NCBI RefSeq assembly: GCF_045037415.1
Contig: NZ_CP173438.1
Source of the DNA: Escherichia coli
GTDB taxonomy: Bacteria > Pseudomonadota > Gammaproteobacteria > Enterobacterales > Enterobacteriaceae
Reading direction: 5' to 3' (one strand)
DNA length: 64,000 bases
Shown: one piece after another, positions 46,072 through 49,000 of the stretch
How positions within the stretch are numbered: the stretch's first letter is position 1
How the letters are laid out: each line of letters starts with the position of its first letter
Position numbers: made by a program

Positions 46072-49000
46072 TTAGGAAGGTGGAAAGTTGCTCAATAGAT
46101 TGCGCGGACGTCGTGACGTTAAAACGTTGCAGCAGTCCGGCAGCGCGGCAGGCGCAGAGCTCGCCCTGGCAGGTGCCCATCCCCACACGGGTACGACGGC
46201 GTAAATCCAGCAGGCTATTAACGTTTAAATTTTCTACCGCGTACTGCACTTCACCCGCAGTTACCGCTTCGCACTCACATACCAGGCTACGGTGCAGACG
46301 GCCTTCGCTCAGCCAGGCAGGCGTGCGATCGCCATGACGATAAACCGCAGAACCGCGCAGCGGGGCAGGTAGGGAGATGACTTTACGCAAGGTAACTTCA
46401 GCGGGTTCCTGTGAACCAGGAAGTGCCAGATCGGCGGTCGTACAGGGGCGCGTGTTGCCCAGTTTGCGGCATACGGCATCGGTAGCCCATTCCGCCATCA
46501 GCCGATAGGTCATCAGTTTGCCACCGGTGATGGTGATAAACCCGTCCAGACCATCGCGTTCAGCATGGTCGAGCAGCACGATGCCACGGCTGACGTTACG
46601 TCCGCTCGGATCGTCATCGCTGGCAACCAGCGGGCGTACGCCAGAGTAGGCCCGCAAAATGCGCGTTTTCGCCATCACGGGGGCCAGTTTTTCCCCTTCA
46701 CGCAGCAGAATATCAACTTCTTCTGCCGTTACTCGATTATCGTCAATCTCGTTGTAATCAATACGTAAAGAGGTGGTGCCAATCAGCGAAATGGTATCGC
46801 CAGGCACCAGAATATCGGCGTCGGAAGGTTTGCGGCAGCGGTTGATCACATGCTGATTAATGCGGTGATCCATGATCAGCAGCGATCCTTTCGCCGGGAA
46901 CATGCGAATGCGCAGATCGGCATATTCGGCAATGTGTTGCCCCCAGATCCCGGCGGCATTAACTACGACAGGTGCATGAAGTGCCTGAATTTCGCCGGTG
47001 AGATGGTTACGTACACGAACGCCGCACACCGCCGCGCCTTCACGAATCAGCCCCGTGACTTCATGAGCGGTAAGGATAACGGCACCGTGTTCTTTGGCAT
47101 CCAGCATGTTTGCTGCTGTCAGACGAAATGGATCAACGGTGCCATCCGGAACTTTCACCGCGCCAATCAGTGCCGGGTTAACGGCAGGTTCGATAATGCG
47201 CGCTTGCTGCGGATCAATGGCTTCTGCGCTGATCCCTGCTTCTTCGCAGGCGCGGATAAAAGTGGCCTGGAAGGAGAGGTCATCTTCCGGCAGGGTGATA
47301 AACAGGCCGTTGGTTGGTTCTACGCAGTGACGTGCAATGCGTTTCAGGATCTGGTTTTCACTAATACATTCGCGGGCCGATTCCGCATCGGTTACCGCAT
47401 AGCGCGCACCGCTGTGCAGCAGGCCGTGGTTACGCCCGGTGGCACCGGTTGCGATGTCGTGGCGCTCAACCAAAATCACGCGCAGCCCGCGCAGGGCACA
47501 GTCGCGGGCAATCCCGGCTCCCGTTGCGCCACCGCCAATGATAATCACGTCACTTGATTGCGAGTCGCGAGTTTTCATTGTTATCCCTCAGAAGTTCGTT
47601 TTTTACCATTTAGCCATAGTAAAAACATGAATTGTTTGATTTCGCGCATATTCGCTCATAATTCGAAAGTGAAACGTGATTTCATGCGTCATTCTGAACA
47701 TTTCAACCATCGTATTTAATAATGTGTGCGGTAATTCACATTTAATTTATGAATGTTTTCTTAACATCGCGGCAACTCAAGAAACGGCAGGTTCTCCCAC
47801 TGAATCAGGCTGTTAATCATAAATAAGACCACGGGCCACGGAGGCTATCAATGTTGAGTATTTTTAAACCAGCGCCACACAAAGCGCGCTTACCTGCCGC
47901 GGAGATCGATCCGACTTATCGTCGATTGCGCTGGCAAATTTTCCTGGGGATATTCTTTGGCTATGCTGCTTACTATTTGGTTCGTAAGAACTTTGCGCTC
48001 GCTATGCCTTATCTGGTTGAGCAGGGATTCTCACGCGGTGATTTAGGTTTTGCCCTTTCGGGGATCTCGATTGCTTATGGATTTTCGAAATTCATCATGG
48101 GTTCGGTATCGGATCGCTCGAATCCGCGCGTTTTCCTGCCCGCAGGTTTGATTCTGGCGGCGGCAGTGATGTTGTTTATGGGCTTTGTGCCATGGGCGAC
48201 GTCGAGCATTGCGGTGATGTTTGTACTGTTGTTCCTCTGCGGTTGGTTCCAGGGGATGGGGTGGCCGCCGTGTGGTCGTACTATGGTGCACTGGTGGTCG
48301 CAGAAAGAACGTGGCGGTATTGTGTCAGTGTGGAACTGTGCGCACAACGTCGGTGGTGGTATTCCGCCGCTGCTGTTCCTGCTGGGGATGGCCTGGTTCA
48401 ATGACTGGCACGCGGCGCTCTATATGCCCGCTTTCTGCGCCATTCTGGTGGCACTGTTCGCCTTTGCGATGATGCGCGATACCCCGCAATCCTGTGGCCT
48501 GCCGCCGATTGAAGAGTACAAAAATGATTATCCGGACGACTATAACGAAAAAGCGGAACAGGAGCTGACCGCGAAGCAGATCTTCATGCAGTACGTGCTG
48601 CCGAACAAACTGCTGTGGTATATCGCCATCGCCAACGTGTTCGTTTATCTGCTGCGTTACGGCATCCTCGACTGGTCACCGACTTATCTGAAAGAGGTTA
48701 AGCATTTCGCGCTGGATAAATCCTCCTGGGCCTACTTTCTTTATGAATATGCAGGTATTCCGGGCACCCTGCTGTGCGGCTGGATGTCGGATAAAGTCTT
48801 TCGTGGTAACCGTGGGGCAACCGGCGTCTTCTTTATGACACTGGTGACCATCGCGACTATCGTTTACTGGATGAACCCGGCAGGTAACCCAACCGTCGAT
48901 ATGATTTGTATGATTGTTATCGGCTTCCTGATCTATGGCCCTGTGATGCTGATCGGTCTACATGCGCTGGAACTGGCACCGAAAAAAGCGGCAGGTACGG

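Follow-up and report, generated by a model that had tools for sequence, protein, structure and literature searches.

The interval 47636-47740 is very probably the core of the long-studied divergent glpACB-glpTQ control region, with outward-facing, activator-dependent promoters and GlpR operators. Within this interval, TGTGCGGTAATTCACA is a genuine CRP site. A weak FNR site, at 47636-47649, falls inside a published FNR footprint and is embedded in the best GlpR operator of the spacer. The glpA-glpT switch region is already known, and nothing described here is new in kind; since the GlpR sites, the CRP site and the weak FNR site all belong to this known region, the locus is an ordinary one. It is a textbook case of multiple inputs, in which CRP reads the carbon source, GlpR the inducer and FNR oxygen, and has little discovery value. 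All positions are those of the window, i.e., the whole 64,000-nucleotide stretch of Escherichia coli DNA that was analysed (Table 1).

Table 1. Features of the glpA-glpT spacer and its flanking genes, in window coordinates
Feature	Position	Strand	Remarks
glpA ORF	45950-47578	-	NCBIfam GlpA equivalog NF008313, E=0
glpA start codon ATG	47576-47578	-	5' end of glpA ORF
GlpR-like operator GAAGTTCGTTTTTTACCATT	47591-47610		14/20; spans inferred glpA start, +11 to -9
Inferred glpA transcription start, A	47601	-	7 nt downstream of conserved extended -10; inference
glpA TG-extended -10 TGGCTAAAT	47608-47616	-	mean column identity 0.96, 23 genera
Very weak in-register 20-mer, also glpA promoter spacer	47611-47630		7/20; mean identity 0.49 over 47617-47630
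FNR(D154A) DNase I protection, 70 bp, approximate	47620-47689		computed from description in PMC5352689; edges approximate
Best GlpR-like operator ATTGTTTGATTTCGCGCATA, composite with FNR site	47631-47650		15/20
FNR site TTGAT-TTCG-CGCAT	47636-47649, centre 47642.5	-	footprint, conservation, -10 spacing
Fourth in-register 20-mer TTCGCTCATAATTCGAAAGT	47651-47670		10/20; repeat unit 2 plus TTCGAAAG half-site
Candidate weak second CRP half-site CGTGA-TTTCAT-GCGTC	47675-47690, centre 47682.5		speculative; core 5/10
GlpR-like operator CATGCGTCATTCTGAACATT	47683-47702		12/20; right half is repeat unit 3; in 20-bp register with 47723
CRP site, 22-mer, class II for glpT	47721-47742, centre 47732.5		core 9/10, footprint and conservation
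GlpR-like 20-mer TGTGTGCGGTAATTCACATT, overlapping CRP site	47723-47742		14/20
glpT -10 hexamer TAACAT	47762-47767	+	conserved as TAACAT/TACCAT/TACTAT; right distance from CRP site
glpT transcription start	47772-47774	+	47772 by PMC5352689 numbering; 47774 by 7-nt canonical -10 spacing
glpT start codon ATG	47851-47853	+	5' end of glpT ORF
glpT ORF	47851-49209	+	NCBIfam GlpT equivalog NF008433, E=1e-294

Locus and allele

The original prediction had assigned the locus to the glpACB-glpTQ divergent region, and the profile matches of the two ORFs, the neighbouring glpB, glpC and glpQ genes, and the presence of a 601-bp region in 5419 of 5426 complete E. coli genomes confirm the assignment. RefSeq also annotates glpA in an identical strain. 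The intergenic spacer between glpA, on the minus strand, and glpT, on the plus strand, is 272 bp (47579-47850), and the sequence strings that had been quoted from it are all present, at positions that are right to within one base. A search of 47400-48000 against Rfam gave zero matches, so there is no RNA element there. The K-12 glpTQ-glpACB control region was reportedly the subject of Larson et al. 1992 (JBC 267:6114) and Yang et al. 1997 (Mol Microbiol 24:511).

Compared with E. coli K-12, which has the same locus, the window allele differs at 10 of 332 positions and has zero indels. A more recent study of the control region reported both CRP and FNR footprints (Kurabayashi et al. 2017, PMC5352689), and the published CRP 22-mer and FNR motif of K-12 are identical to those of the window save for one base in the CRP spacer, which is T in the window and C in K-12 and in the footprinted 22-mer (position 47732). 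Between the FNR-protected region and the CRP site, the window allele further departs from K-12 in a patch at 47704-47712. The stretch 47591-47693 is free of polymorphism in five divergent E. coli alleles, and the sole E. coli polymorphism within the CRP site falls in its N6 spacer. Across genera, conservation of the spacer concentrates on the CRP, GlpR-like, FNR and promoter elements.

CRP site and glpT promoter

The CRP core TGTGCGGTAATTCACA (TGTGC-N6-TCACA, 47725-47740) matches TGTGA-N6-TCACA at 9 of 10 positions. This match alone is unremarkable because three cores with at most one mismatch were observed in the 64-kb window against 1.6 expected, which scales to about 0.007 per 272 bp; what counts is the position of the core and its conservation. 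In DNase I footprinting, CRP-cAMP protected AATGTGTGCGGCAATTCACATT, from -30 to -52 relative to the glpT start, and glpT expression or promoter activity was lost in crp and cyaA mutants (PMC5352689). Column identity among 23 Enterobacteriaceae genera is 0.89 and 0.87 for the two half-sites versus 0.58 for the N6 spacer, and a core of at least 8/10 occurs at the equivalent position in 16 of the 23 sequences. The footprint, on the same sequence apart from one spacer base and at about -40 of the glpT start, together with the conserved half-sites, bears out the original prediction of a 9/10 CRP site that serves glpT some 40 bp downstream.

We read the glpT promoter as a class II CRP promoter, in which CRP-cAMP, with its centre some 40 bp before the start, substitutes for a -35 element; in class II CRP promoters such as galP1, the activator dimer is likewise centred near -41.5, where it overlaps the -35 region. 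We back-calculated the glpT start from the published positions of the FNR motif (-136 to -123) and the CRP site (-52 to -30) (PMC5352689). With this numbering the CRP centre lies at -39.5 (canonical, -41.5) and with -10 spacing it lies at -41.5. Secondary sources mention several CRP sites in the glpA-glpT spacer; the 2017 footprint contained just one CRP-protected region (PMC5352689). A second CRP site at 47675-47690 is speculative, and its centre would be at -91.5 of glpT and -81.5 of glpA, with a moderately conserved GTGA. Separately, in one clinical blood isolate of the collection an IS1 separates the CRP site from the glpT -10 hexamer.

FNR site and glpA promoter

The original prediction had found no convincing FNR site for glpA, which was wrong. 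The sequence TTGATTTCGCGCAT opens the very interval that the prediction delimited, includes the first of its repeat units and has been footprinted, and its TTGAT half is kept in 34 of 35 Enterobacterales, the 35th taxon being aligned out of register. The site was missed because it matches TTGAT-N4-ATCAA at just 7 of 10 positions (left half 5/5; right half CGCAT 2/5), which is unconvincing by sequence alone and below a useful genome-scan threshold. The DNase I footprint of FNR(D154A) includes the exact sequence listed in Table 1 (PMC5352689), and we placed that footprint from its description as 70 bp, 32 bp upstream of the CRP footprint (PMC5352689). The right half reads A[AG]CAA in all 12 of the 12 taxa outside the Enterobacteriaceae, and the site reaches 9/10 in Yersinia, Serratia, Pectobacterium, Providencia and others.

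The extended -10 of glpA and the TTGAT half-site tie as the best-conserved elements of the spacer among the 23 genera. From the centre of the FNR site to the -10 hexamer CTAAAT (47613-47608) is 29.5 bp, a layout common to most of the 35 taxa, and among the 12 more distant Enterobacterales most have a TGn plus xxxAAT hexamer at constant distance from ATCAA. The inferred glpA start sets the FNR site at -41.5 (and at about -130 of glpT), and glpA would be a class II FNR promoter that uses the weak site. This arrangement resembles that of class II FNR promoters of the FF-41.5 type, where the activator likewise sits about 41.5 bp upstream of the start, and the FNR-side promoter here has a TG-extended -10; in contrast to those promoters, its FNR site is half-consensus. 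No glpA or glpT start was found in the supplements of Cappable-seq, Kim 2012 and Conway 2014. A generic sigma-70 scan detected neither promoter, as expected because both are activator-dependent, and its single hit (47695-47723) is at chance level. The locus also illustrates how consensus matching can overlook a functional FNR site that is obvious by cross-genus conservation and -10 spacing.

GlpR-like operator array

Repeat units of the TTCG..CAT kind at 47641-47700 had been likened to multiple GlpR operators in the original prediction. The units are TTCGCGCAT at 47641-47649, which is within the right half of the 47631 operator, TTCGCTCAT at 47651-47659, and TTCTGAACAT at 47692-47701, which ends one base past the predicted limit. 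TTCGNNCAT has nine copies in the window versus 11.5 expected, two of them 10 bp apart here, and when the spacer is shuffled by dinucleotides, an 8/9 direct 9-mer repeat at a spacing of 9-12 bp arises in about 5% of cases. A repeat finder passes over the 8/9 repeat here, for want of an exact 6-mer seed that spans it. The units would be the right-hand half-sites (AWCGAACATW-like) of GlpR-type operators. Their relation to GlpR operators stands, but they are half-sites, the real unit being a 20-bp palindrome, and the array reaches left as far as 47591, so that it covers the start and -10 of glpA and exceeds the interval first proposed.

As the GlpR consensus we used the 20-bp palindrome WATGTTCGWT-AWCGAACATW (WATGTTCGWTAWCGAACATW). 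It was validated at the K-12 glpD promoter, where one palindrome matches it perfectly (20/20) and a tandem site of 14/20 comes next, and it also finds tandem sites at glpF. The 272-bp spacer holds three 20-mers of at least 14/20 against a shuffle mean of 0.18, and 0.06% of shuffles reach three (p ~0.0006); 19 such positions occur in the whole 64-kb window. The best in-register four-unit sum of the window starts at 47591 (47591, 47611, 47631 and 47651; z ~5.5). Two of these four glpA-side 20-mers match poorly (7/20 and 10/20), and the one at 47611-47630 is counted only because tandem GlpR operators keep a 20-bp register. On the glpT side, the 20-mers at 47683, 47703 and 47723 share a 20-bp register, the middle unit being weak. 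As the spacer elements are both conserved and enriched, we reject a chance origin for them. The exact boundaries of the operators are predicted from sequence matches and register.

Scores of at least 12/20 at the aligned position were found for the 47591 operator in 15 of 23 Enterobacteriaceae (mean ~14.5), for the 47683 operator in 14 of 23 genera (15/20 in two of them) and for the 47723 20-mer in 16 of 23 genera. The 47631 operator reaches this score in every one of the 23 Enterobacteriaceae, where it averages 15.5 and peaks at 17; its mean column identity is 0.87. TTCG and CGAAA are conserved within 47651-47670, where TTCGAAAGTG is similar to AACGAAAGTG, the right half of the second tandem operator at K-12 glpD. 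The non-consensus TGTGCG in the 47723 20-mer is also conserved, but this is confounded by the overlapping CRP constraint. The critical half-site bases for GlpR are reportedly T..TCG / CGA..A (Zhao et al. 1994); each operator has four to six of these eight, and the best operator lacks C at position 7 in every taxon.

The tandem GlpR operators at glpD and glpFK have the same 20-bp palindrome, directly abut in a 20-bp register and overlap the core promoter. In contrast to the perfect 20/20 operator of glpD, the best operator of the spacer scores 15/20 and has a conserved T for C at position 7, which creates the FNR half-site. According to secondary sources, GlpR binds operators near glpT and each glp operon has four to eight GlpR sites. 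Operators internal to glpA have been reported in the literature; a consensus scan for them gave just isolated 12-13/20 matches. Full-text searches with the operator, FNR and CRP sequence strings found a match only in the 2017 paper (PMC5352689).

Discussion

How might the repressor and the two activators be combined at this locus? The centres of the CRP and FNR sites are 90 bp apart in the window, and 89-90 bp apart in 16 of 23 Enterobacteriaceae sequences; thus, each activator is at about -131 of the opposite promoter. GlpR, which responds to glycerol-3-phosphate, may bind cooperatively to degenerate 20-bp palindromes in a 20-bp register, with four positions (47591-47670) that would cover the glpA start, its -10 and the FNR site, and further operators at 47683-47702 and, over the CRP site, at 47723-47742. 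Since the operators overlap the activator sites and the glpA core promoter, repressor occupancy would exclude FNR, CRP and RNA polymerase, and GlpR presumably competes with the activators. Unlike the usual class II CRP or FNR promoter, the two promoters here form a back-to-back pair with sites 90 bp apart, both inside repressor operators. The region is of practical relevance, as the expression of glpT sets fosfomycin uptake, and changes in the spacer can lower susceptibility.

One alternative is that TTGATTTCGCGCAT is a plain GlpR operator with no working FNR site, and that anaerobic induction of glpA is indirect, through ArcA, H-NS or metabolites acting on GlpR. An ideal GlpR 20-mer already scores 7/10 against TTGAT-N4-ATCAA, equal to the score of TTGATTTCGCGCAT, and the 64-kb window holds more than 50 FNR-consensus matches with at most two mismatches. 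The FNR(D154A) footprint was obtained at a ~44-fold protein excess and is unusually wide at 70 bp (PMC5352689), which could reflect low-specificity binding. Among FNR ChIP peaks of wild-type cells in glucose medium there was none at glpT/glpA, and the table of PWM-predicted FNR sites omits this one (PMC3688515). In a strain that lacked hns and stpA, however, an FNR ChIP-chip peak did appear at glpT/glpA (Tables S7 and S11 of PMC3688515) and glpABC expression became oxygen-dependent, with a ~12-fold effect; glpABC and glpTQ are both listed among the FNR-activated operons (Table S8 of PMC3688515). Published work has also shown that glpT depends on fnr, with FNR boosting its expression. A plain operator likewise fits poorly with the 9/10 FNR site at the equivalent place in distant genera and with a centre exactly 29.5 bp from the conserved extended -10. 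Moreover, the T at position 7 in 34 of 35 taxa makes TTGAT and breaks TCG, which GlpR reportedly needs (Zhao 1994). We consider the plain-operator reading very unlikely.

It is less probable still, to the point of being barely tenable, that the TTCG..CAT units belong to the sites of other proteins (extended FNR binding, Fis, TorR, CpxR or IHF) rather than to GlpR. Units 1 and 2 do fall within the FNR(D154A) footprint (~47620-47689) and are direct rather than inverted repeats, which departs from the canonical geometry of GlpR. Fis shifts a 300-bp probe from upstream of glpT, CpxR and TorR are reported repressors, and unit 3, when reverse-complemented to ATGTTCAGAA, bears a loose likeness to a TorR box (7/10 against the tor-box consensus). 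Nevertheless, the units agree with the validated GlpR half-site, and the region's best GlpR matches are the 20-mers that hold them. The enrichment of GlpR-like 20-mers and their 20-bp register are significant, the operator positions are conserved in genera whose surrounding sequence has diverged, and binding of GlpR is compatible with overlap by other factors.

With GlpR operators and a weak FNR site as the preferred reading, it is possible, though we would put it at somewhat below an even chance, that the 47631-47650 20-mer is composite by design, serving both FNR and GlpR, and that the balance between the two has changed in the course of evolution. By keeping T at position 7 (47637), where GlpR prefers C, 34 of 35 Enterobacterales may preserve the FNR half-site TTGAT. 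The FNR-like right half A[AG]CAA would have been retained by Yersinia, Serratia, Pectobacterium and Providencia, and the Enterobacteriaceae would have switched to a GlpR-like CG..CAT. If the site is indeed composite, FNR would activate glpA weakly in E. coli, and only after the repressor is removed, and H-NS could mask this activation.

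The glpA-glpT spacer and its repeats

The region corresponds to the glpTQ-glpACB control region already described in the literature, and none of its features is of a new kind. The original prediction was right about the locus, as NCBIfam equivalogs (E-values of 0 to 1e-190) and RefSeq annotation place glpA on one side and glpT on the other. The surrounding 601 bases are present in 5419 of 5426 complete E. coli genomes, with 100% identity to several, and alignment of the spacer region to K-12 MG1655 shows 10 differences in 332 positions and no indels.

All of the strings quoted in that prediction occur in the sequence, namely repeat units 1 (TTCGCGCAT, 47641-47649), 2 (TTCGCTCAT, 47651-47659) and 3 (TTCTGAACAT, 47692-47701), and the CRP core TGTGCGGTAATTCACA (47725-47740), which matches 9 of 10 core positions. 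By themselves such matches are weak evidence, and the features are real by position, motif context and conservation. CRP cores with at most one mismatch number 3 in 64 kb against 1.6 expected, the 8/9 repeat at 10-bp spacing is equalled in about 5% of spacer shuffles, and TTCGNNCAT is not over-represented across the window.

Features of the glpA-glpT control region (operator scores are matches out of 20 to the GlpR palindrome)
Feature	Position	Strand	Details
glpA ORF	45950-47578	minus	NCBIfam equivalog match; GlpB and GlpC downstream
glpA-glpT spacer	47579-47850		272 bp
Predicted GlpR operator	from 47591		at least 12/20 in 15/23 genera; mean about 14.5
glpA TG-extended -10, TGGCTAAAT	47616-47608	minus	identity 0.96; among the two best-conserved spacer elements
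Predicted GlpR operator	from 47631		at least 12/20 in 23/23 genera; mean 15.5
FNR site, TTGAT-TTCG-CGCAT	47636-47649		footprinted motif of PMC5352689
Predicted GlpR operator	from 47683		at least 12/20 in 14/23 genera; mean 12.7
CRP site 22-mer	47721-47742		footprinted 22-mer of PMC5352689, except T for C at 47732 (non-contacted spacer)
Predicted GlpR operator	from 47723		at least 12/20 in 16/23 genera; mean 12.8
glpT -10 hexamer, TAACAT	47762-47767	plus	conserved; would place the glpT start at 47774
glpT ORF	47851-49209	plus	NCBIfam equivalog match; followed by GlpQ

A weak FNR site in the predicted glpA promoter

FNR(D154A) protects 70 bp located 32 bp upstream of the CRP footprint, including the motif TTGAT-TTCG-CGCAT (PMC5352689). 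The original prediction reported no convincing FNR site for glpA, which was mistaken: the motif lies within this footprint, starting at the first base of the predicted interval with unit 1 as its second half, and TTGAT is conserved across the Enterobacterales (34 of 35 examined). The oversight is understandable given that the site matches only 7 of 10 positions of TTGAT-N4-ATCAA, that FNR-like sites with two or fewer mismatches number more than 50 in the window, and that the predicted FNR sites tabulated by Myers et al. 2013 (PMC3688515) do not include it. A right half of A[AG]CAA makes the homologous site a 9/10 FNR match in Yersinia, Serratia, Pectobacterium, Dickeya, Providencia, Edwardsiella and others.

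The extended -10 element lies downstream of the FNR site on the glpA strand at a fixed spacing, with the FNR centre 29.5 bp upstream of the hexamer. This spacing fits class II FNR promoter geometry, with FNR at -41.5 and a predicted glpA start near 47601. An FNR ChIP-chip peak at glpT/glpA was confined to a strain without hns and stpA, in which oxygen regulation of glpA, glpB and glpC was about 12-fold, and tables of FNR-activated operons include both glp operons (Myers et al. 2013, PMC3688515). The comparative evidence for the site is strong and, taken with these in vivo data, indicates that the site is weak and maskable, but real.

Many non-Escherichia Enterobacteriaceae (orthologous spacers L012-L047, aligned to 47614-47631) carry a CCACA-N7-TGTGG inverted repeat between the -10 and the FNR site, where E. 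coli has CCATAG...CATGA instead.

Predicted GlpR operators and a proposed composite FNR/GlpR site

The GlpR half-site is said to have been defined as WATGTTCGWT by Zhao et al. in 1994, with TCG reportedly preferred by GlpR. Tested on K-12, this consensus finds a perfect 20/20 palindrome (TATGTTCGATAACGAACATT) adjoined by a 14/20 copy in the glpD promoter, and tandem copies in a 20-bp register in the glpF promoter. Just 19 positions in the window score at least 14/20, three of them within the spacer (47591, 47631 and 47723), a number reached in 0.06% of spacer shuffles. When four 20-mers are taken in register, the highest summed score in the window starts at 47591 (scores of 14, 7, 15 and 10; z about 5.5). 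This array runs from +11 to -70 relative to the predicted glpA start and takes in that start as well as the -10 and the FNR site. Another self-registered set consists of 47683 (12/20) and 47723 (14/20), the latter over the CRP site.

The GlpR character assigned to the repeats is upheld by the 20-mer scores and their conservation, whereas the operator structure and extent had been drawn imprecisely. The three units are AWCGAACATW-type halves of the 20-mers at 47631, 47651 and 47683, with units 1 and 2 in the same orientation where the ideal pattern alternates, and the array begins at 47591; the exact operator edges are provisional. Five E. coli alleles whose spacers differ by as much as 4.4% show no polymorphism within 47591-47693. 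According to secondary sources, operators at glpT are bound by GlpR and there are 4-8 GlpR sites per glp operon, and the tabulated regulators of glpABC are ArcA, CRP, Fis, FlhDC, FNR and GlpR (PMC4949985).

The best operator, at 47631, can be read as a composite with the FNR site, in which two proteins would constrain one sequence. It could be argued that the E. coli FNR site is merely a GlpR operator, as the ideal GlpR palindrome already matches 7 of 10 positions of the FNR consensus. However, the 34 taxa in which the site can be aligned all have T at 47637 (position 7 of the 20-mer), which creates TTGAT at the expense of TCG. This conserved T, the 9/10 FNR sites of other genera and the precise distance to the -10 argue against such a view. 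Enterobacteriaceae have a GlpR-like right half (CG..CAT) in the 20-mer, and more distant genera an FNR-like one. This comparative reading of the composite site is the sole mildly original point here, and it may already be in the paper of Larson et al. 1992.

Six of the 10 differences from K-12 fall in a 9-bp patch (47704-47712) between the FNR-protected region and the CRP site that also varies among other E. coli alleles. Most other Enterobacteriaceae genera have here a conserved block, TTGTCATAwwwwwTGTAACA, which matches the GlpR operator at 12-13 of 20 positions, shares the register of 47683 and 47723 and appears to have been lost in E. coli. Operators within glpA have been reported, and at 47185-47217 inside this gene (roughly +385 to +416 relative to the predicted start) a 13/20 GlpR-like sequence (CAGGTTCGATAATGCGCGCT) adjoins a 9/10 FNR-like one (TTGCTGCGGATCAA), a pairing that may be due to chance. 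The top single score in the window, 16/20 at 6726-6745 (AATGTTCTTTAAAGAAGACT), is distant from any glp gene and, having no CG cores, probably reflects chance.

The CRP site and the glpT promoter

CRP-cAMP footprints on AATGTGTGCGGCAATTCACATT, from -30 to -52 of the glpT start and overlapping the -35 region, and crp and cyaA mutants lose the activity of the glpT promoter (Kurabayashi et al. 2017, PMC5352689). The numbering of that study puts the glpT start at 47772, and with this start or that placed by the -10 hexamer, the CRP centre (47732.5) lies at -39.5 to -41.5, a class II position. Among 23 aligned Enterobacteriaceae spacers, column identity is 0.89 and 0.87 in the CRP half-sites versus 0.58 in the N6 spacer and 0.56 over the spacer region, and an N6 base is the only one within the site to change among five divergent E. 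coli alleles. The footprint, half-site conservation and class II position together bear out the predicted CRP site and its role at glpT.

In one orthologous spacer (L086; NZ_CM132954.1, E. coli strain 361, a Houston blood isolate), an IS1A element at window positions 47744-47752 separates the CRP site from the glpT -10, and its insertion has duplicated a 9-bp target (AATTTATGA). The insertion should uncouple glpT from activation by CRP and could plausibly lower fosfomycin uptake in this way. Around the glpT ribosome-binding site, 47834-47846 (GGCCACGGAGGC) is almost invariant in 23 genera (identity 0.92 versus 0.32 for the remaining 5' UTR); this conservation reaches well past GGAGG, and a small GC hairpin (CCACGGGCCACGG) overlaps the segment.

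A probable mechanism for the divergent region

Most likely, two activator-dependent promoters point outwards, glpT relying on CRP at about -41 and glpA on FNR at -41.5, and GlpR would bind cooperatively to operators that overlap the glpA core promoter and the two activator sites. GlpR occupancy would then shut both operons until released by glycerol 3-phosphate. The CRP and FNR centres are 90 bp apart (89-90 bp in 16 of 23 Enterobacteriaceae sequences), which places each activator near -131 of the opposite promoter. FNR is reported to enhance CRP-dependent glpT expression (PMC5352689).

In more distant Enterobacterales, including Yersinia, Serratia, Pectobacterium, Dickeya and Providencia (spacers L022, L029, L034, L035, L040, L045, L058, L064, L065, L073 and L079), the spacer is longer, at 300-600 bp, and the distance from a strong CRP site (9-10/10) to the FNR centre is exactly 60 bp rather than the 90 bp of Enterobacteriaceae. 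The two groups thus differ in activator layout.
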